This document shows positions 3,417 through 64,000 of a stretch of DNA of 64,000 nt, one piece after another. The notes beneath the pieces are model-generated. The model saw only the letters and a program-made list of their open reading frames with translations, made no database searches and was not told the origin of the DNA. Made by a program: the position numbers and the translations under genes. Position 1 is the first letter of the stretch. Each line of letters begins with the position of its first letter. The DNA is taken from positions 24,726 through 88,725 of the forward strand of contig JAWCRZ010000002.1 in the NCBI GenBank assembly GCA_038868995.1, given 5' to 3'. Origin of the DNA: Candidatus Woesearchaeota archaeon (GTDB lineage: Archaea; Nanobdellota; Nanobdellia; Woesearchaeales; ARS49).

Positions 3417-4853
3417 TTATAAGGTGGTGACTGTCTCCGGTTTTTTTGGCTCCATCTGGAATGTTGTCACCTTGTTTTTTCCCTGTTTTTTCGAGTATCT
3501 TACTCTTCTGTCTGCCGCGTTCATCAGTTCTTCCAGTTTTGTTCCATCCTGCTGCAGAATAGCAACTCCCATGCTAACTGTGACTCTTTCTGGCGCCACT
3601 CCAATGCTTTCCTGCGCTATTGCCTCCCTGAGCGTTTCCGCAAGCGTCACTCCACCAACAGGGCCTGTATTGGGAGCTACTATCATCATTTCCTCGCCGC
3701 CCCACCTGCAGGCAGCGTCGCTCTTTCTTATGTGCTTGCGGGTTATCTCTGCCACTTTCGCGATTACCTTGTCACCCGTCTCCTCTCCGTACTTTTTGTT
3801 GAATGCTCCAAAGTCGTCTATGTCAAACATTATTAAGACAAGGGGTGTTTTTTGGCGGAGCGCAACTGTTATCAGTTCTTGCGCCAATGGGACAAATGCA
3901 TGCCTGTTCAAAAGTCCTGTAAGTGCGTCGTGTGTTGCAAGATGCGATGTTCGCGTTAATGCTATGCGTTGCGCTTTTGCTTCTTTTTGAAGATATTCAA
4001 TTGCTTCCGGCTCGAGCAAATCAGCGTGCTTCAACAGCAAGCTCTGGTAATGCAGGAATTCTTCAGGTGTTGCGATTGTTGTCAAGTCCTTTTCAATGTC
4101 TTGCTTGGTTATTTTTTGGGTAAATATGAGCCATTTTCTTCGCGGCTTTTCATATTTTTCAATGAGCGCTTCAGCCCAGGTTTTCTCTTCGAGCATTGGC
4201 TGGAGACGGTCATAAATCTCTGTTTTTTCCTCAAGTATTGCCTTTTCAAAGCGTCTGGAAGTATCCTTCCATTCAAGCATAAGATGGTCGATGTCAAGTT
4301 GTGTGTCTTTTTTTCTGGTTTCTTCAATGAGGGAGTCAAAGTCCTGTTTCAGCTGGCGCTCGTACTTTATCATTCCCTGGAACAGGCGGATTGCGTCTGC
4401 GAAGTGTTCCAGCACGCTTTCTGCTTTGCCGATTGCATTAAGCTCTTCTTCCTTCTCGCGAAGTATGCCTGCTATTTTTTTTCCTGCCTGTTCTGCCTTG
4501 ATTCCGCCTGCTGCCTGGTCGCGTAGCAGTTCCTCGTATTTGTGCTTTTTTCCTTGTGCAAAATTGTCAAGGGCTTCTTTTTCGGCTGTCACGGATGTGA
4601 AATCCAGGTTGGCAAGCATTTGCCGCACGTGCTGCTCAATCTCATTCAGCAGCAAAAGCACTTTTTGGCGTGCTGCAGGGTCTTCTTTGTTGGCTTGAAG
4701 CGCCTCAACCAGTGCAGCGACTTTTTGTTTGAAAGGATACAGTGCCAGAATTCTTTTTTCAAATGTTTTCAGTACATTTTTTTCTTCCTGCGTGAGTTTC
4801 TGGAACAAGAGCAATGCTGCGTCTGCCATGTTTCCTCTTTTCGGTTGTTTCAA
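3417..4853 (-). CDS. GGDEF-domain protein (diguanylate-cyclase family): N-terminal ~300-aa coiled-coil region plus C-terminal GGDEF domain with GGEEM variant motif and RxxD I-site
   Basis: C-terminal ~165 aa carry DALTGLLNRHAF, FDIDDFGAFNKKYGEETGDKV, RKSDAACRWGGEEMMIVAP and MNAADRRVRYSKKQGKNKV. These match the GGDEF consensus (D.LTGL.NR, DID.FK.IN, RxxD-x3-RxGG[DE]EF, AD.ALY.AK..GRN). Confidence 0.8.
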   Translation of the reverse strand: MKQPKRGNMADAALLLFQKLTQEEKNVLKTFEKRILALYPFKQKVAALVEALQANKEDPAARQKVLLLLNEIEQHVRQMLANLDFTSVTAEKEALDNFAQGKKHKYEELLRDQAAGGIKAEQAGKKIAGILREKEEELNAIGKAESVLEHFADAIRLFQGMIKYERQLKQDFDSLIEETRKKDTQLDIDHLMLEWKDTSRRFEKAILEEKTEIYDRLQPMLEEKTWAEALIEKYEKPRRKWLIFTQKITKQDIEKDLTTIATPEEFLHYQSLLLKHADLLEPEAIEYLQKEAKAQRIALTRTSHLATHDALTGLLNRHAFVPLAQELITVALRQKTPLVLIMFDIDDFGAFNKKYGEETGDKVIAKVAEITRKHIRKSDAACRWGGEEMMIVAPNTGPVGGVTLAETLREAIAQESIGVAPERVTVSMGVAILQQDGTKLEELMNAADRRVRYSKKQGKNKVTTFQMEPKKPETVTTL

Positions 4854-6594: not shown

Positions 6595-6651
6595 TGTATC
6601 ACCCTTTCAATTATTTTCTCATTGTGCTGTATAAAAAAGTTTTGCTTGGAT

Positions 6652-6791
6652 GGTGCTGTCAACTAAATGGTGCTGGCCGCTCTGCCTCATCTTCGCAGAG
6701 GTCATTTTTCTCTCCTCCGCATTTGCGAGGAGGAGAGAAAAATGAGTCCGGAGGACCAAAGTGCAGCCAGCACCAGAAACTTGACTTAACC
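6652..6791 (-). repeat. MITE-like intergenic repeat, copy 2 (inverted orientation), full length
   Basis: Reverse complement of copy 1 over ~140 bp, with a perfect internal palindrome tcatttttctctcctcc gca tttgc gaggaggagagaaaaatga. Confidence 0.8.
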
Positions 6792-10843: not shown

Positions 10844-10888
10844 GCAAAGAAGTTTCTTATGTCTGCTTTAAAAATATTATCGAGAATT

Positions 10889-11016
10889 GGTGTTTTCAAC
10901 TTAATGGTGCTGGCCGCTCTGCCCAGGCCTTGCCGAAGTCATTTTTCCCTCTCATCTGCATGAGAAAAATGAGTCCAGAGGACCAGAGCAACCGGCACCA
11001 GAAACTTGAGTTAACC
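10889..11016 (-). repeat. MITE-like intergenic repeat, copy 3 (inverted orientation)
   Basis: ggtgttttcaacttaatggtgctggccgctctgcc ... accggcaccagaaacttgagttaacc. Internal hairpin variant tcatttttccctctcat/atgagaaaaatga. Confidence 0.75.
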
Positions 11017-13448: not shown

Positions 13449-13766
13449 ATGAACAAAAAAGGCATTCTCTGGCCAAGCATTCTCGCGCTTGTTGGGTTTA
13501 TCTTGTTTGCAGTCATCCTCATCACTCTTTTTTTGGTGCCCCTGATAGTTGTCGGTGCAAACATAATAATCTTGTACTTTTTCTTCCTGCGCATATACAC
13601 AGAAATAACAAAGTACAAAAGAGGCGACATTTACGCATACAGCTTTATCGCAGCGGCACTCATTGTCGTCATTTTCAAGAATTTCCTGCCGCTTTGGTGG
13701 ATAACAACAGTAACAATACTGGCTTTCATAATCGCGCAAATATATATTATGATGAAAAAACGCTAA
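13449..13766 (+). CDS. small integral membrane protein (3 predicted TM helices)
   Basis: 105-aa ORF, strongly hydrophobic, no motif. Confidence 0.5.
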   Translation: MNKKGILWPSILALVGFILFAVILITLFLVPLIVVGANIIILYFFFLRIYTEITKYKRGDIYAYSFIAAALIVVIFKNFLPLWWITTVTILAFIIAQIYIMMKKR

Positions 13767-14098
13767 AACTGCCTTTCAATTTCTTTAAGCGCAGCATCAA
13801 CTCCAAAGAAAACGTTCGAATGCGTTGCCGAGGAAGTAAACGTGCTTCCCTGCGCGACCGCCTCAATCCTTATATCCGGATGGGCAAACGAAATTGACAA
13901 TTTTTCCAGCCCTTTATCTGAGAATTTGCGGGCATAGGTCCCGATTATCTTCTTCAGAACAATCATTGTGGCGTGGTCTATGCCTTCCACGCCATACAGC
14001 TCGATGTTGCCGCCGAGCCGCACTGCATCATCCATAATAAAGACATTAACCAGAATTAAGTTTTTAATTTTTTCCAAAAAGGGATGCCAACCAGTCAT
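13763..14098 (-). CDS. hypothetical protein, 111 aa
   Basis: ORF with plausible coding statistics. Family not recognised. Confidence 0.45.
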   Translation of the reverse strand: MTGWHPFLEKIKNLILVNVFIMDDAVRLGGNIELYGVEGIDHATMIVLKKIIGTYARKFSDKGLEKLSISFAHPDIRIEAVAQGSTFTSSATHSNVFFGVDAALKEIERQF

Positions 14099-14166
14099 TA
14101 CTCTTTAGTAACTTCAACAGCGAAAATCTTTTAAACAGATGACCTATTGCGCATATGGGGGAGATA

Positions 14167-14295
14167 ATGATTAAATGCCAACGATGCGGCACAGCCGTGC
14201 GATCATACAGCCCAATGCGCAAATGGTGCGTTGACTGCAGGCGCGTCATCTCCCTTGAGCAGGCAAAAGAAAGAAAGCTTGCGGCCAAGAATTAA
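14167..14295 (+). CDS. small zinc-ribbon protein (42 aa, CxxC...CxxC)
   Basis: MIKCQRCGTAVRSYSPMRKWCVDCRRVISLEQAKERKLAAKN. Absent from the ORF track because it is shorter than 60 aa. Confidence 0.35.
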   Translation: MIKCQRCGTAVRSYSPMRKWCVDCRRVISLEQAKERKLAAKN

Positions 14296-14410
14296 GAAAA
14301 AATTGCTTCTTGTTCAAATTCGAAAAGCTTCAATTCGCTGACTTTTTTCGGCAACCGAAGCAAAACTCTTCTCTCATCCTCACAATGCCACAAAACAAGG
14401 CAATTCTCGA

Positions 14411-14450
14411 GGTTAAGTCAAGTTTCTGGTGCTGGTTGCTTTGGTGGCTC
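14411..14450 (+). repeat. MITE-like repeat, truncated copy 4 (5' ~40 nt only)
   Basis: ggttaagtcaagtttctggtgctggttgctttggtgg, then diverges. Confidence 0.6.
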
Positions 14451-14645
14451 TGATGCAATTCTTGTGTGGCAAGCCGTATCTGCCTGGCTTTATTCTTACT
14501 GCCTTGAACGCTCTTGCTGCGTTTGTTGGCAGGGCTTTGTCTGGCTGATTTACAGCAACCTGTCGCCAAATTCGTATTTTGCGGAGGTATCGAAATGCCC
14601 TTTCATTTCGAAACTTTTTTAAATCCCCTTCACGTCGGTAGCGCT

Positions 14646-14837
14646 ATGGGTAGAATAAAGACGCAGTTAATCAAACGTCTCACGTTTGAGATTATGAAGC
14701 AGCGTGAAAAACTCTCGCCTCAGTTTGAGGAGAACAAGAAGGTTGTAGCAGAGCTTCTGGGCGGCGCGAGCAAAAAAATCAGGAATAGTGTTGCGGGCTA
14801 CGTGACCCGGTTGATGAAGATAAAGGAAGAATACTAA
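14646..14837 (+). CDS. rps17e: 30S ribosomal protein S17e
   Basis: MGRIKTQLIKRLTFEIMKQ...FEENKKVVAELL...NSVAGYVTRLMK matches the archaeal S17e consensus (MG.IR...IKR.A..L...FE.NKK.V......RN.IAGYVTR). Start moved to the internal ATG. Confidence 0.85.
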   Translation: MGRIKTQLIKRLTFEIMKQREKLSPQFEENKKVVAELLGGASKKIRNSVAGYVTRLMKIKEEY

Positions 14838-14859
14838 GTGACTGCCTTGGGGGTGACTT

Positions 14860-15141
14860 ATGGCAGACGACAACAGTATTTTCATCGGGAACAAGCCGTT
14901 TATGAATTACGTTACAGGCGTTGTCATGCAGTTTACAACACAGCAGGCCTCTGAAGTTATTATAAAAGCGCGTGGGAAATTCATCTCAAGGGCTGTTGAC
15001 GTTGCAGAGGTTGCTTCAAAGCGTTTTCTTGACAATGGCGTTTCAGTGCGGGACATCCGCATAAATTCTGAGGAGTTTACTAACAAGGAAGGCAGGAATG
15101 TGAGGGTTTCCACTATTGAGATTTCCCTTAAGAAATTGTAA
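14860..15141 (+). CDS. albA: DNA/RNA-binding protein Alba
   Basis: IFIGNKPFMNYVTGVVMQF...EVIIKARGKFISRAVDVAEV...RNVRVSTIEISLKK is the classical Alba signature. Confidence 0.9.
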   Translation: MADDNSIFIGNKPFMNYVTGVVMQFTTQQASEVIIKARGKFISRAVDVAEVASKRFLDNGVSVRDIRINSEEFTNKEGRNVRVSTIEISLKKL

Positions 15142-15279
15142 GGTTAAGTCAAGTTTCTAATGCTAACTTGCCGCCTTGGTCCTCTGGACTCATTTTCCCT
15201 CCTCGCAGACTGGAAGAGAGAAAAAATGACCTCGGCAAGGCCTGGGCAGAGTGGCCAGCATTATTAAGTTGACAGCACC
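15142..15279 (+). repeat. MITE-like intergenic repeat, copy 5 (reference orientation), full length
   Basis: ggttaagtcaagtttctaatgc ... ggccagcattattaagttgacagcacc. Hairpin variant ctcattttccctcctcgca/ggaagagagaaaaaatgac. Confidence 0.8.
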
Positions 15280-15350
15280 AAAACATAGCAACTTTTTTAA
15301 ATGAAAAATTGTTCCTATAATCTATGCGGTTATAAAAGGGCTGATTATTA

Positions 15351-17552
15351 GTGGCAAAAGAGGGAGCAAAGAAGTTAGTGTTTGCTGGCTTGATTCTTGT
15401 TATAGCTCTTTCTGTGGTTTTTGTGTGGCAGAATGATGCGCCGAAGTATGTTGTTCTGACAGGTCTTCAGGTGTATGAGCCGGCTGTCTTGGGAATTACG
15501 AATGTTTCTCCAGGTTTTGTACATCAGGCAGCCACGGTTCAGTTGAATGTTACCGGTACTGGTTTTAATTCGAGCGCTGTTTTGTTTTTTTCAAATCCTG
15601 ATATTTCTGTTCTTTCTCTTGTCGTTGTTAATTCCACTCTTGTTGAAGTTAATGTTTCTGTTGCGATTAATGTCTCTCCTGGATTTTATGATGTAACAAT
15701 TAATCAGATAACTGATGAATCAACTTTGCCTGCTGCATTGGAAGTTCTTGAGGGGCCTTTTGATGTTTCAACGCTGACTAATGTAACTCCTGATGATGGT
15801 TATATTAATACAAGTGAGACGTTGAATCTTACGTATAATATTACGACTGCTTCGGGTGTTGATAAGTCAAGTGTGAACGTGATAGGTGGTTGGATTAATA
15901 TTACTAATTTGAACACGTCCAACTGGACTGTTCTGAATATGACGAGTGCTATCGACCCTGAGGGCACGTTTACTGTTCAGTTTGAAGAGCACACGTTCAT
16001 AGAAGAGGGTTATTATTTGGGCGAGATGTATCTTGACTTGGAAGTTGATGGTGAGTATGTCGAGCGGGAGTATTATGTGTATTTTGGTGTTGGTGATATT
16101 ATTATTTTTAGTTTCTGTGGTGATTTCATTATTGAGCCGTTTTTTGGCGAGGAGTGTGACCCGGCCGGCGCTGCATGTGGCATTTGTACGGATAATGGCC
16201 AGCCGTGTGTTCCAGGTGGTGATACTGGTCTTTGTGCCGACCCGTTTGATCCTGATGTTTGCGTGCCTACTGGTGATGTGTGCGACCCGGTTTGTAAGTG
16301 CCAGCCGTTGTGCACTGAGCCGGAGTTTGTTTCATTTGACTGTACTGAGAATGCGCAGTTTGAATGCCCGTTGTCTGTTCCTCCTTTAACGCTTTGTTCG
16401 TTTGGAAATGCTGTTCTGTGTTGCGGTGGAATTGATGCTTTTAGCAACCCGTTCACTCCAAGCTATAATTTTGGCCCGTGCTCTCCGTTTGATGTATTTT
16501 CTGGTGGTTGTGAGACGGCAAGTTTGAACGTTGAGGGTTGTGATGAAACTTGTGTGAAAGTAACTGTGTGTGGTGATGATATTGTTGAGGGTGCCGAGCA
16601 GTGTGACCCTCCTGGTTCTGATTGCACGGCTCCATTTAGTGGCACGTGTGAAATTGATTGTCAGTGCCCTGGAGGCGTAATTGCTGATTCCGTGGGCATT
16701 TCAGCCGGGCAGCCGGAGCCGGAAATAGACCCGAACCTTGTTGTTGTTCTTCCGATTGGAAAGAAGTGTTGTACTGCTTTGCCGACTCCCAGTCCGACGC
16801 CTCCTCCTTTAGTTGGAGGCGGTGGTGGTGGCGGTGGTGGCAGGCCGTGTTATTTTGAAGTTATTGATATTTCTTCCGATGGCAAATCCACCACTATTCA
16901 TTTTGCCTCAAAGCCTAATTGTCCTTTGACAGTCTCGCTTGGCGGGCGTACGTTCAACGTAATAAAGCAGGATATTACGGTTACTGTTCCTTTCTATCCT
17001 GGTCCTAATGTTCCTGTTTTCGTTAATGGAAGGAAAATCGGAGAAACGCCCGAGGTTGTTCCTAAAGTTGAGATTCCCGCGCCTGTTCCAATGCCTGCTG
17101 CTCCTCCGTTCGTGACGCCTCCGAAGAAGGCGTGTCCGGAAGCTGCTTGTGTGCCGTTGCCTTATGGAATGGGGGTCCGTGATGATGTGTTGAGCGTAGC
17201 ATTTGGTGTTGATGTTGTTCCTTGTTCGCAGATTGATGTGACTGTTCTTGATTTGCTGGCATTGGTTGGCGATGCATCTGACAAGGCGCGATACGAACTG
17301 GTTAAAAGGTGCTGTCCGTGCCCGGTGATTGAGTATCCTGCTGCGCCGTGTCCGGCTTCGCGGTGTGAAAAAACTCTGAGCGGTGAACTTGGAGTTCGTG
17401 ATAGCTTGCTTAGTGCCCTGCATGGTGTGGCTGTTGTGCCGTGTTCTGTTATCGACATTTATGCTCTTGATTTGCTGGCATTGACTGGTGACGCTTCTGA
17501 CAAGGCTCGTTATCAGGCTGTAAATGCTTGCTGTCCGAAGCCCTGTCCGTAG
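15351..17552 (+). CDS. secreted/surface cysteine-rich glycoprotein (733 aa): N-terminal TM/signal, IPT/TIG-like domain, extremely N-glycosylation-sequon-dense region, Myxococcus-type Cys-rich repeat modules, Gly9 run, C-terminal tandem ~65-aa Cys repeats
   Basis: GTG start. Hydrophobic N-terminus. ITNVSPGF..VQLNVTGTGFNSS..VEVNVSV..NVSPGFYDVTI (IPT/TIG pattern). About 14 N-x-S/T sequons within ~150 aa. EECDPAGAACGICTDNGQPC and EQCDPPGSDCTAPFSGTCEIDC (TIGR02232-like). PTPSPTPPP linker plus GGGGGGGGG. Two C-terminal repeats ...VRDD/SLLSxxxGVxVVPCSxIDxxxLDLLALxGDASDKARY. Confidence 0.75.
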   Translation: MAKEGAKKLVFAGLILVIALSVVFVWQNDAPKYVVLTGLQVYEPAVLGITNVSPGFVHQAATVQLNVTGTGFNSSAVLFFSNPDISVLSLVVVNSTLVEVNVSVAINVSPGFYDVTINQITDESTLPAALEVLEGPFDVSTLTNVTPDDGYINTSETLNLTYNITTASGVDKSSVNVIGGWINITNLNTSNWTVLNMTSAIDPEGTFTVQFEEHTFIEEGYYLGEMYLDLEVDGEYVEREYYVYFGVGDIIIFSFCGDFIIEPFFGEECDPAGAACGICTDNGQPCVPGGDTGLCADPFDPDVCVPTGDVCDPVCKCQPLCTEPEFVSFDCTENAQFECPLSVPPLTLCSFGNAVLCCGGIDAFSNPFTPSYNFGPCSPFDVFSGGCETASLNVEGCDETCVKVTVCGDDIVEGAEQCDPPGSDCTAPFSGTCEIDCQCPGGVIADSVGISAGQPEPEIDPNLVVVLPIGKKCCTALPTPSPTPPPLVGGGGGGGGGRPCYFEVIDISSDGKSTTIHFASKPNCPLTVSLGGRTFNVIKQDITVTVPFYPGPNVPVFVNGRKIGETPEVVPKVEIPAPVPMPAAPPFVTPPKKACPEAACVPLPYGMGVRDDVLSVAFGVDVVPCSQIDVTVLDLLALVGDASDKARYELVKRCCPCPVIEYPAAPCPASRCEKTLSGELGVRDSLLSALHGVAVVPCSVIDIYALDLLALTGDASDKARYQAVNACCPKPCP

Positions 17553-17603
17553 AAAAGTTTAAATACTTCAACCCATTTTATAGCCACATAAAGGTGGTAA
17601 CAA

Positions 17604-18497
17604 ATGCTGAAATTGGAGCTTTCTGATGTTGTAAGAAAGGCAGCGATGGGCTTAGGTCTTGGAGTGCTCTTTTCTCAGGTAGACCCACAAGCGGTTGCCG
17701 CGCCTTCGGCTACTCATTCTCAGGACAGCGAAAAGCAGGATGAAAAGAAGCCTTACAAGAACAAGATAACTTACGAGCAAGCTAAGAAAGGTAGCAAAAA
17801 GACAAAGCGCGATTATATTATTGGAAAGATGTACGAGATGGGCATTCTGTATCACAAAGACCATTGCCCTGATGGTCATGTGGGTGACGTGTTTGATTTT
17901 GATGATAAATCTGATAAGAAAAGATTAGAGAAAAGGTTGGATGAAGAGTTAAAGTTTAATCCAGCATTATATAAGGCTGGTTTTGAAGAAGCGCGCGAGA
18001 GCAAATTAGCGTATCATTGCCGGGATCCTCCTGGCCAAAATGAAAGACTGCCATTTATCGTATTCTATTTGGAAGAAATATTTCCAGCAAAAGGCGAGGC
18101 AACTTCAGAAGATGAAATCACAAGCCGGCTAAGATATCTTAAGGCCAGTACTGAATATTTCAATACGGCAATATTTTTCGGGAAAAAGATGCCGCTTGCA
18201 AATGCCAGTATGAAGTTTCGGAGAGATACTGTGGGTTCTCTCTATGCCGGTTATGCACAACTTTCTAAGATAATTGACAATACGGATAAAGTGTCGGATG
18301 CTACAAGGCAGGATGTGCTGGAAAGATACTTGCACAATTATTACAACTGCATGAGGTGCTTTGAAATCAGAGAAGATGAAACGGTGCAAGAATTCGTAAA
18401 GCATGTTGTTGATAATATTAATTCAGGCATGAGGCAGCTCGGTTATGTTCACAAGTACGATGAAATAAAAAAAGAGTGGTCTTTGGAAAAAGAATAA
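17604..18497 (+). CDS. hypothetical (probably secreted) protein, 297 aa
   Basis: Strong SD-like aaggtggt 8 nt upstream. N-terminal hydrophobic segment AAMGLGLGVLF...AVAAPSA. Lys/Glu-rich. No family recognised. Confidence 0.6.
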   Translation: MLKLELSDVVRKAAMGLGLGVLFSQVDPQAVAAPSATHSQDSEKQDEKKPYKNKITYEQAKKGSKKTKRDYIIGKMYEMGILYHKDHCPDGHVGDVFDFDDKSDKKRLEKRLDEELKFNPALYKAGFEEARESKLAYHCRDPPGQNERLPFIVFYLEEIFPAKGEATSEDEITSRLRYLKASTEYFNTAIFFGKKMPLANASMKFRRDTVGSLYAGYAQLSKIIDNTDKVSDATRQDVLERYLHNYYNCMRCFEIREDETVQEFVKHVVDNINSGMRQLGYVHKYDEIKKEWSLEKE

Positions 18498-18546
18498 TGT
18501 TTAAATAGTAGTCTTTCTGATTTCCCTCTTAAAAGAGGGAATTTTG

Positions 18547-21500
18547 ATGAATCGCTTAATAAGTGGGCTTTCAGTTTTATTGGTTATAGCCCTTGGACTG
18601 AACGTCTTTCTTTACGAAGCCAGGGCTCAAGCGTCTCAATCACCTGTTGGTTATGAGAGGTATATTCCGGCCGTTTCTGCTCTTTGCCCCACTGTGGTTA
18701 TGGAGTGTGCCAAGGACAAGCCAGGCGTAAAGTCCGAGGAAATCAAGAAGCTGAAGCTTCTTGAGCTTATAAAGACTGGCAAGATGGCTCCAGGAACCGG
18801 TGGCACTTTGCTTGAAAAAGACATTCCTACCGATACTTTGGAATGTGATGATCCTAAGTGGGAAGAGTGGTGTAAATCAGGGCAAGCGAGCGCGACGGCA
18901 AATACTTTATGTGAAAAGCGCAAGGAGTGCTGTGGTGTCTGCCTGAAGAAACCAGAAGCAGTATTTTCTCCGCTGATCCGACAGGAATTCCTGAAGAAAG
19001 TGAAACCTGGTGCCACAATGCTGCAAGAGGATATTCCTGGTGACAAGCTCGCATGCGATGATAAGCGCTGGGGTGATTTATGCAAGCCAGGCAGTTATAC
19101 GTCAGCATATCTGTGCCAGTTGCTGGAAAGGTGTTGTATGCCCGCTGTTTGTACGAAAGAGCCTCCAGGTGTCCAATCTAAAGATATCAAAGATAGGCTG
19201 ATGACTGAAAAAGGAATTAAGCCTGGAATGACAGTGCCTGCTGCCGACGTACCAAGCGATATTCTGACATGCGCTGATAAAAAATGGGATGAATGGTGTA
19301 AGAATCCAGAGGATCCTTTGTGTAAAAAGCGAAGCGAATGTTGTGTTGACTGCATCAAAAATCCTGATGGTGTGATGTCTCCTGAAATATCAAAAGTTCA
19401 GTTTGAGGCGCGTCCATTCGGAACAGTGCCTGCTTCTACCGCAGCGCGTAAAATTCTTTTATGTGATGCTCCTGAGTGGGGTCCATTGTGTAATCCCAAT
19501 AATCAGAAATACGACAAGGATAACCCTCTTACGAAACTTCTTTGTCCTGCAAAAGAAAGATGTTGTCCGCTAACAGTAGAACCAGCCAAACAGCCAGGTG
19601 GGCTACCAAAGCCTTCGTTGGATGAAGAATGGAGTTGTGTATCTGTTGATAGAGCTGGCGAGAAAGGAGCTGGCAAGGAAAAATTAGTCATTAAACACAA
19701 AAATATACCTTTGGGAGCTGGGCAATATTTAGAAATGGAGCCTACGTGCGATTCTGCAAAACAGACACGCGACGCTTTGAGCAAAACTCCAGTATTTGGT
19801 TTTGCTGAAGCTGCGAACATTGCCAGATTGCTTGGTGAGATTGACGTTGCAATTGCCAAATGCTGCCCAGTGCAAACATGTCCTCCTACAGCGCAGGAAA
19901 AGCTTCCTAACGGCGCTCCGAATCCGTGCATGGATGCGAAGAAACGTGTGCCGATTGTGCATTTCGAGTTCGGCGGTAAGAAAAAGCTGAATCCTTGCTG
20001 TGACCCCCAGACGTGTATGCCACAGGTTGGTGTTTGCGGCTGTTGCAGCATGGATGCCAAGGGAAACCCTACTGGCACGTTCCTGCAGGGAAGGCATGCA
20101 AGTGGTCTTGTTGATATATTTGACCAGAACGGGAACATGGTTGGCAAGACAGATTGTTGTCCCGGCTCTGCTTGTCGCATTACTTTTACAACAATTTCTG
20201 AAAAAGCGTGCGTGAGAAACAAGTGTATTTGTGATATAGACAGCTTCCAGATTACCGGGCCGCCAATTCAAAGACCTATTCCAGGTGGGTTTATTATACA
20301 TGCATTTCAAGGTGTGCCTGTGAGGGATGTTTCAGACCAATTCTATGGAAGAAACATGTGGGGTTTGGCTCGTCCCAACAAGGCTGCTACGTGCAATGAT
20401 CAGGTCGCGTATGATCCGTTTGTAACAAAGAAAAATTGGAAGGAGGCTGTTGCCGCTTGCAATCCTTCTCCTCCAGGCGTGCAGCCGTGTCCACCTTGGA
20501 TTGCAGCCTTGTTCCCTAAGCTGTGCGGTCTTCCTGTTGGTCCTGGTCCTGATGTAAATCCAACCTCTGTGCCTGAGAATGGTCACTCAGTTGTAATCGT
20601 TGACTATCCTCCGCCTATCGAGGGCCCAACAAGCACTACCACGCAGACTTTTGGCAACGTGCAGCAGGTGAATGTTGCTCCGCCGTTGAACAATAAGGTT
20701 GCGTGTGCTGTTGCTGTTGGTCCTGGCAGGATTTCTGTTGCTCCTGAAGTGCAAGCACCTGCTGGTTGTACTCCTGTTATGTCTTTCTCGTGCTCTGGAG
20801 ACCAATTGCAGGCTGGTCTTATGGTTCCTGCTGATGTTATGGTGACTGGCGCGTATGTTGTGAAAAATGGCCGGTCAAGTCCGGTGCCAGTAAGCCATAC
20901 TTCTGGTCCTACCTGCGGCAGTATTTCATTGACCGATATTCGTTCCAATCAGATTGCGAATGCTGCGCCGTCTTCTTATAGTCCTGAGAAATTCACTCCG
21001 ATTGTAAGGCGTGAGCGTGCTATCACGCACGCTGATGTTGACAAGTCTCTGTCTACAGAGGGTGCAGACATAATTAAGATTGAATTGTTGGAGCCTTCTG
21101 ATGTTACAGTTACAATTGATAATGTTGACCGCGTGTTGCCTGCTCCGGAAAACCCGAGCTTGCGCTTGTTCAAGCCATTCAAGGTTTTATTCGCGCCTGA
21201 ATACAAGAATGGTATTCAGGTAACTGGCAAGTTGAACGTGCCGTTGTACATTGACCGTTCTTCTGTTGGCTTGTATGCTTTGGCGGGTGATTCTTGGTTC
21301 CCGATTCTTACTGGTCGTGAGGATAATTCGTATGTTGCAATTATTAATGATTTGAGGCCTTATATGACTGATAATCAGGTAACTTTTGCTTGGATGGGTG
21401 CGCATTGCCCAACCTGCCCTTCTGAAAAGCTTGAGTTGGTCTATGATGGTGGCGGCAGTGTGGCTGTTGTGTTTGTTCATGGTCTCACAAATGACAGGAC

Positions 21501-22617
21501 TCGCTTCCAGCCGGTTATTGACAGGGCGATTGTGACTAAAGCGCCGTATAAGCTTTACACTTTCAGTTATCAGTTTGATAAGTCTGTGGAGAGTGTTGCG
21601 CAGGAGTTTGCACGCCAGCTTAATGTGAATAGTGCTGAATGGTCTCGTGCGTATATCGTGTCTCATTCTGTTGGTGGTCCTTTGTCCCAGCTTGCTGTTA
21701 ATCACGCGCGCAATAATGGTTATTCTGTTGCTGGCAAGGTGCGTAAGCTTATTATGGCTGGTCAGCCGGGATTGGGTAGCCCTATTGCTGTTTACTTGAA
21801 GCTTTTGTCATGGCTCCCCACACAGAATAGCATTGCTACGCTTTTCGGCACTGATACGCCTTTCTATAGTTTGGCTGTTAATGGCTTGCAGGTAAATCAG
21901 AATCCTGGCACTGAGCCGGTAGTTATTGTGGGTACAAAGGAATTATTGCTCACTCAGGCTGATTTTGTTGAGGCGAATGATGGTGTTGTAGCTGGTACGA
22001 GCGCTGCACGCGTTCACAATCGTGATTTGAGCGCTGAACGGTGCAGCAATTATTTTGAGGTTTATGAAAATCATCTTGAGCTTATCTGGGCGCCTGGCAG
22101 TGTGTGGACTGTGTGGCACGTTATTGCTGAGGATGTTGCCACTCCTGATGCTCGTGTTGTTGAAGTTCAGGACGTTAGCCTTGGCGTTGTTGACTGCAAG
22201 CAGGGCGATGTTATCGTTTTGTGCGGAGAGCGGGTTTCGCAGGAGGCAGCGTTTGATGCTACTATGTGCAAGTGTGGCAATGGTGTTTGTGGCGTTGGTG
22301 AGAATTCTGATAATTGTCCTGCTGATTGTCCGACCGAGTACGCGTTCCTCTACTTGTGCAGGCTTTCGCCGTATGTTGTTTATCCTCTGCTTGTTATCTT
22401 CCTGCTCATCACGTCATTGTTTTCCTATAATGCAATCAAGCGTCATGAGCGCTCGAAGAACCTTACCAAGTTGTTCGTAATTGCGTTTGTGTTGCTTGGC
22501 CTTGTTGGATTGGCGAATTTAATCTGTGGTGTGCCGATGGTTATGGCTTACGTGATTAGCGGTTTCAGCATTATTCTTTTAATTCTGGCGCGCGCGCATG
22601 GCAGGCCCATTTATTAG
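18547..22617 (+). CDS. giant surface protein (~1356 aa): signal peptide, 4x tandem novel Cys module, central region, lipase-like alpha/beta-hydrolase domain, CGNGxCGxGE..CPxDC module, C-terminal 3-4 TM helices
   Basis: Signal MNRLISGLSVLLVIALGLNVFLYEARAQA. Repeats LECDDPKWEEWC / LACDDKRWGDLC / LTCADKKWDEWC / LLCDAPEWGPLC, each followed by LC...CC..C. VAVVFVHGLTNDRT...YIVSHSVGGPLSQ (HG oxyanion element plus GxSxG-like HSVGG). CKCGNGVCGVGENSDNCPADCP. Hydrophobic C-terminus. Confidence 0.8.
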   Translation: MNRLISGLSVLLVIALGLNVFLYEARAQASQSPVGYERYIPAVSALCPTVVMECAKDKPGVKSEEIKKLKLLELIKTGKMAPGTGGTLLEKDIPTDTLECDDPKWEEWCKSGQASATANTLCEKRKECCGVCLKKPEAVFSPLIRQEFLKKVKPGATMLQEDIPGDKLACDDKRWGDLCKPGSYTSAYLCQLLERCCMPAVCTKEPPGVQSKDIKDRLMTEKGIKPGMTVPAADVPSDILTCADKKWDEWCKNPEDPLCKKRSECCVDCIKNPDGVMSPEISKVQFEARPFGTVPASTAARKILLCDAPEWGPLCNPNNQKYDKDNPLTKLLCPAKERCCPLTVEPAKQPGGLPKPSLDEEWSCVSVDRAGEKGAGKEKLVIKHKNIPLGAGQYLEMEPTCDSAKQTRDALSKTPVFGFAEAANIARLLGEIDVAIAKCCPVQTCPPTAQEKLPNGAPNPCMDAKKRVPIVHFEFGGKKKLNPCCDPQTCMPQVGVCGCCSMDAKGNPTGTFLQGRHASGLVDIFDQNGNMVGKTDCCPGSACRITFTTISEKACVRNKCICDIDSFQITGPPIQRPIPGGFIIHAFQGVPVRDVSDQFYGRNMWGLARPNKAATCNDQVAYDPFVTKKNWKEAVAACNPSPPGVQPCPPWIAALFPKLCGLPVGPGPDVNPTSVPENGHSVVIVDYPPPIEGPTSTTTQTFGNVQQVNVAPPLNNKVACAVAVGPGRISVAPEVQAPAGCTPVMSFSCSGDQLQAGLMVPADVMVTGAYVVKNGRSSPVPVSHTSGPTCGSISLTDIRSNQIANAAPSSYSPEKFTPIVRRERAITHADVDKSLSTEGADIIKIELLEPSDVTVTIDNVDRVLPAPENPSLRLFKPFKVLFAPEYKNGIQVTGKLNVPLYIDRSSVGLYALAGDSWFPILTGREDNSYVAIINDLRPYMTDNQVTFAWMGAHCPTCPSEKLELVYDGGGSVAVVFVHGLTNDRTRFQPVIDRAIVTKAPYKLYTFSYQFDKSVESVAQEFARQLNVNSAEWSRAYIVSHSVGGPLSQLAVNHARNNGYSVAGKVRKLIMAGQPGLGSPIAVYLKLLSWLPTQNSIATLFGTDTPFYSLAVNGLQVNQNPGTEPVVIVGTKELLLTQADFVEANDGVVAGTSAARVHNRDLSAERCSNYFEVYENHLELIWAPGSVWTVWHVIAEDVATPDARVVEVQDVSLGVVDCKQGDVIVLCGERVSQEAAFDATMCKCGNGVCGVGENSDNCPADCPTEYAFLYLCRLSPYVVYPLLVIFLLITSLFSYNAIKRHERSKNLTKLFVIAFVLLGLVGLANLICGVPMVMAYVISGFSIILLILARAHGRPIY

Positions 22618-23130
22618 TCTCGTCGATTTTTAATAGAAATCTTTTTAAATATTAAACTTTTATAATTATACCGAAAGGGGAGATGAGGGTGAAGGTTCAT
22701 AGAGGTGTGGCGTGGTTATCCCTAAGACAGGTCAGACTGAGCCCGTAGTTTAATCTCTGCAGCTTTCTCTATTGTCTCTGGAGACTGGCCTTTTGTTTTG
22801 CTCCAATGAAAAGTGGAGCTTAATTTGTTCTGCGCCAGGCAGGCCTGCTGGCTCGCATAAAAAATCCCATGGCTCAGCAGTTGTGTGATGAATACAAGAA
22901 ATGTTGCCCTTGGCCAGCATTCCTGCTCCACCTATAGACATATTCAAGTCGTATTCTGTTGAGGAAAGCTGGAAATGTGACAGAACAACAGGGTGATTAA
23001 ACAAAAAGTGCCTGACTCTGCTAACCTTGGAAAGTCAAAAGAGAGCACGCATGACTGCAATTCAGCAGAAAATGCGCGGTCAGGCACAGAAAAGTGTTGA
23101 TGAAGAGATTAAACGCCTTGCAAAAGCTCT

Positions 23131-23502
23131 TTAAAATCCAAAATACGCGTCAAGCGAATAGGCGCCTGCTCCCAAAAGCGCCAGTGCAAGGGCAACAATG
23201 GCGAGAATGAACGGGTATTCATATCCGAATTTTTCCTTGCCGATAAAGACGTCGTTCCATTTGAATTTGTGGAAGTAGAGCGCGCCGAGCATGTTTACAA
23301 AGAGTGCAAGTCCTGCAATCTGCGTTAAAAATCCAAGCAGGATTCCAAGCCCGCCGAAAAATTCTGCAATTGCAACAAGCGGGCTTAAAAAGCCGGTTGT
23401 TTCTTTCATTCCCATAGGGTTCTTTATTTTCGGCCAGCCGTGCATTATGAATATGATGCCAAGCCCGATTCTGAGCAGTAACAATGCAAAATCCTCGTAC
23501 AT
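23131..23502 (-). CDS. DoxX-family membrane protein, paralog A
   Basis: LLLRIGLGIIFIMHGWPKI... with 4 TM helices, typical DoxX. Confidence 0.75.
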   Translation of the reverse strand: MYEDFALLLLRIGLGIIFIMHGWPKIKNPMGMKETTGFLSPLVAIAEFFGGLGILLGFLTQIAGLALFVNMLGALYFHKFKWNDVFIGKEKFGYEYPFILAIVALALALLGAGAYSLDAYFGF

Positions 23503-23533
23503 AATTATCTGAAAATTAGGTGAATATTAAAAT

Positions 23534-24055
23534 TTATCGCAGCACATATACGATTGCCGGAGGCACATTCCTCACAGCTATTTTCCTGCTGATGTGCTTA
23601 AAGTGCCTTTTTAGATATGGCTCTCCGAGGGGTGTGTAATGGAATTGCACGTATGCGTGTTTCATTACTTTTTTGACTTCCTTCAATATCTTGACGTGTG
23701 CTTTCTCCGGCAACCCTATAAGTGGCAGCCCGCTGGTGATGTAATCCGCTTTATCGACATGTTTTGACAAATGCTGTGCATCTGCATGGATGACATGCAG
23801 CCTCTTGTCATCCCATTTTTTCAACTCATCGCAGAATTCCTTGCATATTTCAAGCGCGGTTAATTTAGCGTCAGGCCTCATTTTCCTCAATATCTCCTTC
23901 GTTATCGCCCCTGTTCCAGGTCCGAGTTCAACAATGTGCTTTGCTTTCTTGAAATTAATCGGGGCGACCATTGCTTTTACTAAAGCAGGGCTGCTTGGCA
24001 GTATTGCTCCTGTGCGGACAGGATTCTTGAGGAATTGCTTTAGGAAGTTTATCAT
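23534..24055 (-). CDS. small class I SAM-dependent methyltransferase (COG3963-like), paralog B
   Basis: FLKNPVRTGAILPSSPALVKAMV (COG3963 N-terminal motif), VELGPGTGAIT (motif I), DAKLTALEI. Same architecture as 9008..9550. Confidence 0.7.
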   Translation of the reverse strand: MINFLKQFLKNPVRTGAILPSSPALVKAMVAPINFKKAKHIVELGPGTGAITKEILRKMRPDAKLTALEICKEFCDELKKWDDKRLHVIHADAQHLSKHVDKADYITSGLPLIGLPEKAHVKILKEVKKVMKHAYVQFHYTPLGEPYLKRHFKHISRKIAVRNVPPAIVYVLR

Positions 24056-24111
24056 ATTCTTCGGTAAAAGACCAAAGTTTTTAAACCCTTGCAGGAAAAA
24101 TTATTAATAAA

Positions 24112-24226
24112 GGGCGTGTAGTCTAGTGGATAGGACGTTGGGCTTCGGTCAGCAGCTGCTATGAAGGCCTCTGAGCAATCTGTTGCAGGATACCCAAAAA
24201 CCGGGGTTCAAATCCTCGCACGCCCG
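24112..24226 (+). tRNA. tRNA-Arg (anticodon UCG) with a 43-nt intron (24149..24191) at the canonical 37/38 position; CCA not encoded
   Basis: Manual cloverleaf. Acceptor GGGCGTG/CACGCCC. D-arm GTCT-AGTGGATA-GGAC. Anticodon stem TTGGG/CCCAA, loop CTTCGG|intron|A. T-arm CGGGG-TTCAAAT-CCTCG. Discriminator G, followed by a T-run. Confidence 0.7.
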
Positions 24227-24722
24227 TTTTATTCTGAGAATTTGTAGATTTTATCGTGGTGGTCGAATTCGTAAAAAATTATCTTGTCTTCTGTCTGGAT
24301 ATGTTTGAATATCAGAACGAATGGTCTGTTAATGTGCATTCTTTTGAAGTGTTAGAGGGGGTTCGTAAGTTTTTGTAACGATTAACATCTGCGCAGGTTA
24401 GAATTTCTTGAATTTTGCTTATGAGAATCTCGTATGTTTTTCTATTCTTCCTGCATAATGTTTTTACTTTTTTCGGCACCATTTTTTCGACGGAAAACAA
24501 ATTCAGGTCTTAATTCCGGTTCCATATGCTCTCTTTTGTATATGGTTACCACGAGTGTGATTGCTTCTGCCTTGTTTTTTAATTTATGCTGTGCTTTGAC
24601 GCTGATTCTTAGGCGCATTAGTTTTAATCGCTTGCATAGGGGGAGAAGCGATGCTGTGGAGATATTTTCAACACGCTATATTACCCAAAAGCTTAAAGTA
24701 GCTGATAATCTATCACTCCGGT

Positions 24723-25103
24723 ATGAACAAGCAAGCTCTGGGGCTGTTAATGCTTCGCATCGGATTGGGCGGTGTCTTTTTATGGTTTGGCACGGATAAG
24801 TTTATTCATCCTGATATCTGGGTGAATTATATTCCTCAGTGGTTTCCGATGCCGGTCTCAACCGCAATATTTATCTTCTTGCTCGGTATTGCAGAGTCTA
24901 TTATGGGTGCCGCGGTATTGGCGGGCTTTTTCACGCGCGCTGCAGCAACTACGGCAGCATTGATGCTCATCCCGATCATAATTTCATTGGGTTATAACGA
25001 GATTGGCATCCGTGATTTCGGCTTGTTTATGCTCGCCGTGGGAATAGTTTTCCTTGGCGCGGGCGAATTCAGTGTTGATAAATTGCGAGGTGGTAAATTA
25101 TGA
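24723..25103 (+). CDS. DoxX-family membrane protein, paralog B
   Basis: LLMLRIGLGGVFLWFGTDKF... with 4 TM helices. Divergent from paralog A across the tRNA locus. Confidence 0.75.
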   Translation: MNKQALGLLMLRIGLGGVFLWFGTDKFIHPDIWVNYIPQWFPMPVSTAIFIFLLGIAESIMGAAVLAGFFTRAAATTAALMLIPIIISLGYNEIGIRDFGLFMLAVGIVFLGAGEFSVDKLRGGKL

Positions 25104-25534
25104 AAAAACTGTTTGTATTGATTGCCTTGCTGGCAATATTGGTTGCGTGCGCTCCAGAGCAGCCGGTGCAGCCGCAGGTGCAGGTTGAGCCGCAGGCGCA
25201 GTTCAGGGTTAATCCGCCTGAACAAAAAGTTGAGGCAGTCGAGCCGCCTGCAAGGGTTGGAACAGCGCCTTCAGAGCCAAAGACGGTGAATGTTGACATT
25301 GTGAACTTTGCGTATGTTCCTGCTTCAGTGAAAATCAGGGTTGGCGACACTGTGACGTGGAAACAGGTTGACCGGATTAAGCACACCGTGACCATCGTTT
25401 CAGGTCCTGAATCGTTTGATTCCGGTCTTTTATCAGCCGGTCAGACGTTCAGCCATACTTTCACAAAGCCGGGAACGTATGTTTATAAGTGCACGCCTCA
25501 TCCGAGAATGACTGGCGAGATTGTTGTAGAATAA
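25100..25534 (+). CDS. cupredoxin (plastocyanin/halocyanin-like type-1 blue copper protein), lipoprotein-type signal
   Basis: Lipobox LAILVAC. Copper-ligand spacing ...IKHTVT...YKCTPHPRMTGEIVV (His ... Cys-x2-His-x2-Met). ATGA overlap with the upstream DoxX gene. Confidence 0.75.
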   Translation: MKKLFVLIALLAILVACAPEQPVQPQVQVEPQAQFRVNPPEQKVEAVEPPARVGTAPSEPKTVNVDIVNFAYVPASVKIRVGDTVTWKQVDRIKHTVTIVSGPESFDSGLLSAGQTFSHTFTKPGTYVYKCTPHPRMTGEIVVE

Positions 25535-25565
25535 TTTTTATATTCTTTTTTTTTCTCTTTCTATT

Positions 25566-26006
25566 ATGGCATTCCACATTTCTCGCTGGCGTTATTGGTG
25601 GGCGTATCTTGTTGTTATTTTGCTTGTGCTGTATGCCATCTGGCTTACTGACCGTGCTGCCGATGTTGCTTCCTGGATTGTTGGCTCTGTTGCATTTGTT
25701 TTGTTTGTAATTATGGAGGTAATGATAAGACGCCGGCGTGTAATTATTAATGATGCGGTTGAAATAATCAGCGGGAATGTGCGCACGCGTGTTGATTTCA
25801 AAAAAATTGCCGGGGTTTCAGTGCAGCAGTCGGTTCTGCAGAATCTTTTGCGATATGGCACTGTAATCATCAAGCTGCCTGGAGAGGAGATTGTTCTTGC
25901 CGGCTTTGCAGAGCCGAACAGGATTAAGAGGCAGGTTGACAGCCATTTGCATGTAGTGCACGAAAAGCATCCGCATTATTCGCAAAAACCGCGTGTCGGG
26001 CCGTGA
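25566..26006 (+). CDS. membrane-anchored bacterial-PH-domain protein (bPH_2/YdbS-like)
   Basis: Two N-terminal TM helices followed by a ~80-aa segment with the bPH_2 pattern (...VEIISGNVRTRVDFKKIAGVSVQQSVLQNLLRYGTVII...). Confidence 0.55.
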   Translation: MAFHISRWRYWWAYLVVILLVLYAIWLTDRAADVASWIVGSVAFVLFVIMEVMIRRRRVIINDAVEIISGNVRTRVDFKKIAGVSVQQSVLQNLLRYGTVIIKLPGEEIVLAGFAEPNRIKRQVDSHLHVVHEKHPHYSQKPRVGP

Positions 26007-29840: not shown

Positions 29841-30188
29841 TTTGTAAATGTCGGAGGCCCTTGCATGTAACAGTTCGGGGATTTGAACCTTGGTTCATGT
29901 CGGAAAGTTGAAAGAGTGATATTATGTTACTTCGGCTTTCCGAGCAACTTGAGAACTTGTAGTATCGTGATATAATTTTGAGCGAGTTCTCAAGTAATCC
30001 AAGCGCCATATTGCCCATTTTTCAGGTTTTGTCAAGTGTTTTTGGTTGCGTTGGAAAGTTCAAGCGACCCGCCATTCTTTTCTCTTGCTATGGAATAAAA
30101 TTGAACCTTGCAAAGTGAGACCCGCAGTGAACTATTCAATATTTGGTTGGAAATATTTATATACAGTATGATTAATATTTTGTTAAAA

Positions 30189-30947: not shown

Positions 30948-30957
30948 GGTGATAATT

Positions 30958-63906: not shown

Positions 63907-63914
63907 TTTTTTAG

Positions 63915-64000
63915 GGTTAAGTCAACTCTCTGGTGCTGGCCGCGCTGCCTCGACGTTGTCGAGGTGACTTTTCTCTCCCCGCACTTGCAAGGGGGAGAAG
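63915..64000 (-). repeat. MITE-like intergenic repeat, copy 6 (inverted orientation), truncated by the window edge
   Basis: ggttaagtcaactctctggtgctggccgcgctgcctc... aligns to copy 2. The internal hairpin arms carry compensatory changes (ttttctctcccc / gggggagaag). Confidence 0.7.

Follow-up and report, generated by a model that had tools for sequence, protein, structure and literature searches.

How is a large, sequon-rich protein held on the surface of an archaeal cell when its sequence ends without a membrane anchor? This question is raised by a gene in a 64,000-nucleotide stretch of Candidatus Woesearchaeota archaeon DNA (contig JAWCRZ010000002.1, positions 24,726 to 88,725 of the forward strand; hereafter the window). 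The gene lies at 15351-17552(+), starts with GTG and encodes 733 amino acids (aa), exactly as given by a first-pass annotation made from the sequence alone, and its product is 100% identical to NCBI 'MAG: hypothetical protein QW165_00930 [Candidatus Woesearchaeota archaeon]' (MAG, metagenome-assembled genome). The answer that we favour, and to which we give somewhat better than even chances, is that the protein is an exported modular glycoprotein head docked on a membrane platform at the cell surface of this member of the Woesearchaeota (DPANN). Export would be Sec-dependent. Two N-terminal Ig-like domains, one of the IPT/TIG type and one family-specific, would form an exposed and fast-evolving tip, whose 14 N-x-S/T sequons are presumably N-glycosylated and would provide a glycan coat. 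The tip would be followed by a disulfide-rich stalk with divergent TIGR02232-type CGDxxxExxEQCDP repeats, and a Pro/Gly linker would join the stalk to a conserved, sequon-free C-terminal module made of a beta domain and two six-Cys repeats. This module probably stands in for the C-terminal transmembrane (TM) anchor of paralogues, and it may dock non-covalently on the products of two downstream genes, mainly a 1357-aa membrane protein, with or without a 297-aa protein. The parts of the protein are listed here with their basis in brackets.

15351..17552, plus strand: target gene, 733 aa, hypothetical protein of a Candidatus Woesearchaeota MAG (open reading frame (ORF) and NCBI match)
15372..15428, plus strand: N-terminal hydrophobic segment, residues 8-26, predicted hydrophobic region (h-region) of a Sec signal peptide or signal anchor, N-in/C-out (hydropathy, positive N-flank)
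15480..15752, plus strand: head domain D1, residues 44-134, putative Ig-like domain of the IPT/TIG type (E-set), six sequons (sub-threshold matches, family profile)
15753..16100, plus strand: head domain D2, residues 135-250, predicted family-specific beta-sandwich, eight sequons (AlphaFold2 (AF2), Foldseek)
16101..16775, plus strand: Cys-rich region, residues 251-475, 28 Cys, no sequons, poorly conserved (Cys positions, orthologue alignment)
16116..16187, plus strand: degenerate CGDx..GEECDP module A, residues 256-279 (sequence reading; zero hidden Markov model (HMM) matches)
16569..16667, plus strand: module B, CGDDIVEGAEQCDPP...C..C, residues 407-439, putative divergent TIGR02232/DUF4215-type repeat (orthologue segment, profile)
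16776..16844, plus strand: flexible PTPSPTPPP plus Gly9 linker, residues 476-498 (sequence)
16845..17075, plus strand: small, strongly conserved beta domain, residues 499-575 (orthologue identity, AF2)
17076..17129, plus strand: Pro-rich linker, residues 576-593 (sequence)
17130..17330, plus strand: C-terminal six-Cys repeat 1, residues 594-660 (nucleotide repeat, alignments)
17331..17549, plus strand: C-terminal six-Cys repeat 2, residues 661-733, ending CCPKPCP (same basis as repeat 1)

Residues 499-733, left by the first-pass annotation as an unnamed 'C-terminal part', are the most conserved and most unusual part of the protein. The close family is tiny, and its full-length orthologue is P0002 on contig L001. 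Compared with P0002, the regions gave the following identities, nonsynonymous rates (dN) and ratios to synonymous rates (dN/dS), the ratios being rough because dS is near saturation.

Head (D1, D2): identity 55-64%, dN 0.21-0.30, dN/dS 0.13-0.31 (0.31 in D1)
Cys-rich region: identity 38-52%, dN 0.32, dN/dS 0.31
Beta domain and repeats: identity 82-89%, dN 0.05-0.09, dN/dS 0.07-0.09 (beta domain 87-89% identity and 0.07; repeat 2 0.09)

Thus the strongest constraint falls on the C-terminal third, and head and stalk evolve faster. The module opens with the 499-575 domain, for which AF2 predicts beta strands at low confidence, and closes with the two repeats of about 70 aa, which are 58% identical to each other as proteins and also form a direct repeat at the nucleotide level. 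Each repeat has six cysteines in the arrangement C-x4-C...C...CC-x-C, and in the AF2 model of the pair, at a predicted local distance difference test (pLDDT) score of 70, each is a beta-hairpin with three helices.

Foldseek returned zero matches at E<1 for the model of this module against PDB and BFVD, a sequence profile search of PDB was empty, and Pfam, searched with residues 498-733 up to E<=10, gave just a sub-threshold DUF5529 match and a 14-residue H3TH-like match. A word-indexed search with the same residues returned nothing, the protein itself included, which we take as a limit of the index and not as a negative result. A dockerin identity was rejected, as the F-hand calcium-loop motif is absent, Dockerin_1 was unmatched in Pfam and Foldseek gave no dockerin. 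Likewise, a helix-hairpin-helix or DNA-binding role, raised by the 14-residue sub-threshold match to a 5'-3' exonuclease H3TH motif, found zero support in Foldseek, and homology of the repeats to the four N-terminal Cys repeats of the 1357-aa protein was dismissed at an hhalign probability of 1%.

The C-terminal repeat module is also found on an unrelated head. An exhaustive profile search of 1.84 billion representatives detected the module in one other protein family, P0041 (E=5.6e-19). P0041 begins with a classic cleavable signal peptide (..ASLSAHA/LTN), continues with an FG-GAP head that is unrelated and rich in sequons, and ends with a G7 run, a Pro-rich linker and the repeat module; it lacks the 499-575 beta domain. 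In the window the module is followed by two genes that also accompany it elsewhere:

17604..18497, plus strand: 297-aa exported protein, co-conserved with the C-terminal module (homologues in L001 and L004; alignment A9)
18544..22617, plus strand: 1357-aa Cys-rich membrane protein, the putative 'platform' (family scans, homologues)

The co-directional trio of 733-, 297- and 1357-aa genes noticed in the first pass is kept on the second contig, L001, where the 297-aa homologue is 64% and the 1357-aa homologue 75% identical. Just downstream of P0041 on L004 are a 297-aa homologue with 27% identity (E=2e-31) and a 1357-aa homologue with 51% identity over 946 aa. Directly upstream of P0041, at L004 1409-4420, a gene encodes a Beta_helix/NosD protein of ~1000 aa. 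This protein abounds in N-x-S/T sites, lacks a TM helix at its C-terminus and is a candidate for another head protein of the same surface system. Genome-contig and metagenome-contig scans with the platform protein and the C-terminal module gave no further loci, so the known taxonomic spread of the cassette stays at three loci.

The 297-aa protein had zero family matches in Pfam and NCBIfam scans. The 1357-aa protein contains 63 Cys, begins with a signal and has four Cys repeats, each about 70 aa long, in its N-terminal part, and its C-terminal part has three TM helices and a CxCGNGVC..CPADC motif, CKCGNGVCGVGENSDNCPADC. A putative alpha/beta-hydrolase domain with an invariant SHSVGG motif lies at about residues 965-1100. 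The hydrolase signal is weak but consistent: PGAP1, DUF7379 and Lipase_3 all match at E about 0.1, the region matches PDB 7x2p, a 'putative lipase', at E=0.003-0.006, and P0157, a 31% identical platform homologue, has precomputed PF07819 and PF24096 matches. P0157, which is on a 1.9-kb contig, was also the sole match of a word-indexed search with the hydrolase region.

Several relatives have only the head in common with the target, and continue with a Cys-rich part of another kind, a run of Gly and a segment rich in Pro. Among them, P0003, P0004 and P0010 close with a TM helix and a basic tail at the C-terminus, and since they are anchored by this helix, the head must be their membrane-distal end. 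Tandem paralogues of about 490-510 aa, with the same sequon-rich head and a C-terminal TM anchor, are found at L002 1515-4528 and L003 277-3342, and they show local duplication and diversification of the head family. The target has neither a C-terminal TM helix nor a PGF-CTERM-type sorting signal; it terminates in ...NACCPKPCP, and a hydrophobic end segment is absent.

Head and platform are found in a single protein in a related genome. On L006, the order ArgRS, S17e, Alba, variable segment, DoxX, methyltransferase, cupredoxin and bPH_2 is syntenic with the window, and the variable segment encodes P0009, a protein of 2313 aa with a D1-D2 head at residues 193-441. Residues 1838-2285 of P0009 align at E=2e-18 with the C-terminal 420 aa of the 1357-aa platform protein, over its residues 927-1347, and the match spans SHSVGG, the CxCGNxVC..CPxDC motif and the TM helices. 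On these alignments P0009 is a Rosetta-stone-type fusion of two window proteins, and a platform-like partial gene occupies the same slot on L005. Taken together, docking is suggested because the module is conserved and sequon-free and is retained through the head swap, because the partner genes are found alongside it in each of the two independent lineages, because the signal peptide of P0041 is cleavable, and because head and platform are fused in P0009. Residues 499-733 may thus carry the functional link to the two downstream genes.

These data also bear on whether the protein stays on the cell at all. It could be secreted in free, soluble form and act as a toxin or as a factor for scavenging or binding, in which case the Cys-rich C-terminus would be the active part and the neighbours would be accessory or immunity factors; the lack of a C-terminal TM helix or known sorting signal and the small, disulfide-rich C-terminal modules would suit such a role. 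However, Pfam and NCBIfam profiles, PDB sequences and Foldseek gave zero toxin, enzyme or defence similarity for the target, the fusion of head and membrane platform in P0009 argues for cell association, and a long Pro/Gly stalk is typical of tethered proteins. We therefore consider free secretion very improbable.

A wider proposal is that the six-Cys pair is a previously unrecognized docking domain by which interchangeable glycosylated heads (of the IPT/TIG type in the target, FG-GAP in P0041) are mounted on a conserved platform made of the 1357-aa putative serine hydrolase and, as an accessory, the 297-aa protein. Woesearchaeota would then have a modular system of surface display with split (window) and fused (P0009) forms, which may vary the contact surface toward hosts or partners. 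We put it forward tentatively, and would sooner doubt than assert it.

Residues 8-26 form a hydrophobic stretch of 18-19 residues with a hydropathy of 2.1-2.6 in 19-residue windows; MAKEGAKK (net +2) stands ahead of it and QNDAPK (net 0) behind it. By the positive-inside rule, these flanks place the sequon-rich part outside the cell, and the first-pass view of this region as extracellular, not cytoplasmic, is supported by this predicted topology, with all sequons at residues 51-196. A class III (pilin-type) signal peptide was rejected, as a [KR][GA]-hydrophobic cleavage motif ahead of the h-region is lacking.

All 42 cysteines are within residues 256-732, and the 14 sequons (residues 51, 66, 73, 94, 101, 107, 144, 153, 159, 163, 183, 188, 191 and 196) fall where the first-pass annotation had counted about 14, at residues ~50-200; residues 199-733 contain none. 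Shuffling with composition kept gave an expectation of 3.7 +/- 1.8 sequons over the full length and 3.9 +/- 1.7 within residues 40-215, and none of 5000 shuffles attained 14. The head has 8 sequons per 100 aa, about 23-fold more than the mean of 0.35 in 42 other long window ORFs, and a single sequon occurs in all 1357 residues of the extracellular neighbour. When nine heads of the family, sharing about 38-65% identity with the target, were aligned, nine sequon columns were filled in at least six of them. With this positional conservation, the sites are under selection and not a by-product of composition. Sequon enrichment beyond composition and positional conservation, two of the marks by which an archaeal N-glycosylated surface glycoprotein was judged, were both found. 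Elsewhere in the window, 42947-63906 holds a cluster of glycan and sulfation or sulfur-activation genes, with two Sulfatase-family proteins that are sequon-rich in their own right (10 and 6), one protein of the Phosphodiest family, CysD-like (PAPS_reduct) and CysN-like genes, and glycosyltransferases (a tandem pair of PMT_2 GT-C enzymes, three GT1 and one GT2). This cluster suggests sulfated surface glycans.

Several points weigh against the docked-head reading. The data show the architecture, the export signal, the enrichment and conservation of sequons, the domain homologies, the regional constraint, the conserved cassette and the fusion protein, and from these we infer glycosylation, signal-peptide cleavage, platform docking and a role in cell-cell or host contact. 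An AglB gene is absent within the window, and the N-glycosylation machinery is assumed. The cassette argument comes from two independent lineages only, window/L001 and L004, and on L004 two small opposite-strand genes lie between P0041 and the partner genes. P0009 lacks the C-terminal repeat module, and therefore joins head to platform and not module to platform. The AF2 models are weak (mean pLDDT 39 for the full-length protein, 70 for the C-terminal module), and the alignments are of 3-4 sequences. Finally, the h-region is long, at 18-19 residues, and Pro directly follows the best A-x-A-like site; the protein could remain N-terminally anchored, with the C-terminal module as its distal end.

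This last point leads to a rival in which the signal anchor is uncleaved, the Ig-like domains are membrane-proximal, the six-Cys repeats form a distal ligand-binding tip, for example of an adhesin for the surface of a host or partner cell, and the neighbouring genes are merely co-regulated. In addition to the h-region without a clean A-x-A cleavage site, it draws on the C-terminal module, where purifying selection is strongest, as expected for a domain binding a conserved ligand, and whose lack of a structural relative makes a new binding activity possible. We nevertheless think it unlikely, while giving it more credit than any other rival. P0041, which has the same module, carries a short, classic cleavable signal peptide and would be released unless its C-terminus holds it, and it is at the C-terminus that paralogues sharing the head are anchored. 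A head that is shielded by glycans and evolves fast, on a tail free of sequons, is what is usually seen when the head is exposed. Furthermore, a distal tip leaves unexplained why the 297-aa and 1357-aa genes are kept with the module through the head swap.

The tip of such a docked head would be built from two domains of different kinds. The strings quoted in the first pass for an IPT/TIG-like domain, NVSPGF (51-56), VTGTGF (67-72) and VEVNVSV (98-104), are all present, and the assignment stands by homology through intermediates, although the direct test failed: Pfam TIG against residues 40-253 alone gave E=3 and 8.3 bits (cutoff 20.9), and no match at E<=1 for the full protein. Its clan relative Qn_am_d_aIII (E=0.0023-0.011, 16.5-18.7 bits, cutoff 22) and NCBIfam CoaZ_rpt_PGGG (E=0.0016, 18.5 bits, cutoff 30) also stayed below threshold. 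An exhaustive profile search with target and orthologue as query (profile A2) returned 426 proteins at E<=1e-3, most of which match positions about 40-145 repeatedly, in 5-46 stretches of giant proteins. One of these, P0011 (E=1e-52, 15 stretches), is positive for Pfam TIG (E=2.3e-38) and Qn_am_d_aIII (E=1.2e-37), and a D1-only family HMM aligns to P0011 at 1043-1126 and 1138-1222, the stretches that Pfam assigns to TIG (1047-1134) and Qn_am_d_aIII (1139-1213). By this transitive homology, D1 is best read as an IPT/TIG-type E-set domain. The D2 HMM matched none of the TIG-repeat proteins, and D2 is thus considered family-specific. AF2 places strands across residues 45-133 of D1 with pLDDT below 50, and D2 is the sole confident part of the full-length model, all beta with block-mean pLDDT of 62-88 over residues 141-250. 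Foldseek on the full-length model gave generic Ig-like, E-set and filamin matches (best E=2.7e-4), which support no more than 'Ig-like'.

Behind the head, AF2 gives the Cys-rich region (251-475) no confident fold. The two Cys modules noticed in the first pass, with GEECDPAGAAC at 266-276 and AEQCDPPGSDC at 415-425, are present: the first reads FCGDFIIEPFFGEECDPAGAAC at residues 255-276, and the second VCGDDIVEGAEQCDPPGSDC...C.DC.C at residues 406-439, with the core motif CGDDIVEGAEQCDPP at residues 407-421. Their resemblance to TIGR02232 held in the core motif and by homology, and failed as a direct match in the target, where TIGR02232 gave 0 matches even at E<=10 against the protein and the isolated modules (cutoff 20.8 bits) and DUF4215 (PF13948) gave E=1.4 and 9.8 bits (cutoff 27 bits). 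P0002 has a tandem module pair at the second position; this segment alone reaches 24.7 bits against TIGR02232 (E=1.5e-5, cutoff 20.8), and full-length P0002 scores 12.9 bits, below that cutoff. Profile positions 410-490 matched multi-repeat 'CGDGxxxxGEQCDPP' proteins at E=1e-9 to 1e-21; six of the nine tested were TIGR02232 proteins above cutoff, and another profile match, P0034, is DUF4215-positive at E=3.3e-10. A tandem array of the ~38-aa repeat was not found in the target, which has two copies about 130 residues apart. Since the P0002 segment passes TIGR02232 and the profile matches are mostly TIGR02232-positive, the homology of the target modules to the TIGR02232/DUF4215 repeat is real, in a degenerate, non-tandem form that covers the first half of the model only.

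The window contains other proteins of this kind. The secreted Cys-rich protein at 30108-30947(+), which the first pass gave as 30189-30947 and credited with the same repeat, does carry a true TIGR02232 repeat (34.9 bits, E=9.5e-9) along with weak DUF7107 and Dumpy-DPY matches; a direct BLASTP link between it and module B was discarded as not significant (E=0.07). Next to it, 30907-32274(+) encodes a secreted protein of 455 aa with 18 Cys, in which a Gly/Ser-rich stretch precedes a C-terminal TM helix and an RKR tail. In the target, the stalk ends in PTPSPTPPP (478-486) and G9 (489-497), both as described before, and the whole PTPSPTPPP-LV-G9 linker spans 478-497. Comparable Pro/Gly-run linkers occur in P0003, P0004, P0008, P0009, P0010 and P0041.

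The genomic setting is that of a variable slot among archaeal housekeeping genes. ArgRS (arginyl-tRNA synthetase), ribosomal protein S17e and Alba are encoded upstream of the target, and aIF2-gamma, FttA and ProRS (prolyl-tRNA synthetase) elsewhere in the window, from which the source is read as a DPANN archaeon. Window positions 13763-26006 compare with L006 and L005 in the order ArgRS, S17e, Alba, variable surface-protein genes, DoxX(-), RrnaAD-type methyltransferase(-), DoxX, cupredoxin and bPH_2. The slot content differs between related genomes, being the trio in the window and the 2313-aa fusion protein in L006, where a block of unrelated genes, toxin-antitoxin genes among them, lies between Alba and P0009. 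The Alba-DoxX slot thus looks like a replaceable surface-protein island. At L001 7710-12581 the trio is followed by a fourth co-directional gene of more than 1964 aa that runs off the contig; it carries a 30%-identical D1-D2 head copy and a CGD..CD repeat, and the window has no equivalent after 22617.

As noted in the first pass, a repeat resembling a miniature inverted-repeat transposable element (MITE) lies directly upstream of the target:

15145..15301, minus strand: ~150-nt palindromic MITE-like intergenic repeat copy between the Alba gene and the target (repeat search, five-copy alignment)

The five window copies (1358-1496, 6651-6761, 10867-11016, 15145-15301 and 63911-63977) occur in both orientations, share an internal palindromic symmetry, GGTGCTGGCCGC...GAGAAAAATGAGTCCAGAGGACC..., and have 68% mean column identity. 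The repeat matched zero Rfam families at the gathering threshold, and it could be a MITE-like or a structured intergenic element. Three other features were seen in the window. At 24112-24226(+), an Rfam tRNA match spans 115 nt against a 71-position model, which suggests an intron-containing archaeal tRNA gene. A 478-aa protein at 3417-4853(-) has a strong GGDEF diguanylate-cyclase domain (E=1e-36), a domain uncommon in archaea. The 1125-aa, cytoplasmic-looking protein at 32251-35628(-) appears by eye to be a large multidomain regulator with TPR-like C-terminal repeats.

Adjacent surface-protein genes also invite a comparison with S-layers. The target could be the outer, lattice-forming subunit of a two-component S-layer, in which the 733-aa protein corresponds to the canopy protein SlaA and the 1357-aa protein to the anchoring stalk protein SlaB. 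Its Ig-like domains are rich in sequons, its C-terminus adds no TM helix to the predicted N-terminal signal or anchor, the adjoining co-directional gene encodes C-terminal TM helices, the 733/1357 gene pair is conserved, and candidate DPANN S-layer proteins have been described with like general features. However, several head paralogues per genome, in tandem and with their own TM anchors, and the 2313-aa fusion fit accessory surface proteins better. Moreover, the family is very rare, with a handful of sequences among billions, and Cys-rich stalk and linkers, not lattice-type Ig arrays, make up two thirds of the protein. We hold this for improbable, somewhat more so than the uncleaved signal anchor, and retain the docked head as the preferred reading.

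DPANN archaea depend on cell-cell contact, and their surface molecules are almost all 'hypothetical proteins'. The locus offers a concrete, testable hypothesis on the DPANN surface, with a tip, a stalk, a swapped docking module and a membrane platform. If docking is true, the module would be a new protein-protein interaction domain, and the locus would show the exchange of surface specificities within a syntenic 'surface-protein island'. If docking is false, the target would be one more lineage-specific archaeal surface glycoprotein. In the literature, we found no paper describing the target family and one preprint mentioning DUF4215; for the six-Cys C-terminal module, its 297-aa/1357-aa cassette and the split and fused alternatives at the syntenic island, we found no description.

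The separate parts of the protein have better known counterparts. IPT/TIG (PF01833) and Qn_am_d_aIII (PF09099), both of the E-set clan, are repeated in giant bacterial and archaeal surface proteins. D1 resembles them in its length of about 90 aa, in the pattern I-x-x-[VI]-S-P...Q...L-x-[VL]-x-G-x-x-F...[FY]-D-V-x-[VI], and in a family profile that matches proteins with 5-46 such repeats. Unlike in those arrays, D1 is a single copy, scores below both Pfam thresholds and has six sequons in about 90 residues. The target Cys modules have the core CG[DN]G-x-[IV]-[ED]-x-x-E-[EQ]-CD in common with TIGR02232 (the 'cysteine-rich acidic repeat', formerly Myxococcus cysteine-rich repeat) and DUF4215, whereas they carry a CDPP variant, not CDDGN, and of the 38 model positions only the first ~16 align. 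By functional analogy alone, the C-terminal module recalls the cohesin-dockerin pairs of cellulosomes: a small duplicated module at the C-terminus, set off by a Pro-rich linker, is common to proteins with unrelated N-terminal heads and is proposed to plug onto a cell-bound scaffold. Unlike dockerin, the target module is without an EF-hand calcium-loop motif, a Pfam dockerin match or a structural match, and has six cysteines per repeat.

As a system, the closest comparison is with SlaA/SlaB of Sulfolobales, a two-component S-layer in which the canopy protein is held by a membrane-anchored stalk protein encoded adjacently. Both cases have adjacent co-directional genes, a glycosylated subunit (presumably so in the target) without a C-terminal TM helix beside a membrane-anchored partner, and non-covalent anchoring, which for the target is a proposal. 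In contrast, SlaA and SlaB have no sequence or fold relationship to the window proteins; the window platform has a putative alpha/beta-hydrolase domain and three TM helices, and the cassette has a third gene (297 aa). Candidate DPANN S-layer proteins, to which the target is likened by general features and not by sequence homology, so that the link to S-layers is analogy only, have an N-terminal signal or TM segment and many N-x-S/T sites on Ig-like beta-sandwich domains, occur with or without a C-terminal TM helix, and are lineage-restricted and annotated as hypothetical, all as the target. In Nanoarchaeota, no class of proteins diversifies faster than surface proteins (PMC6142677). A sequon-rich, Ig-like, lineage-specific surface protein is the expected kind in DPANN archaea, and the target is ordinary in that respect; unlike the candidate S-layer proteins, it has just two Ig-like domains, followed by a TIGR02232-type Cys-rich stalk and an orphan six-Cys module.

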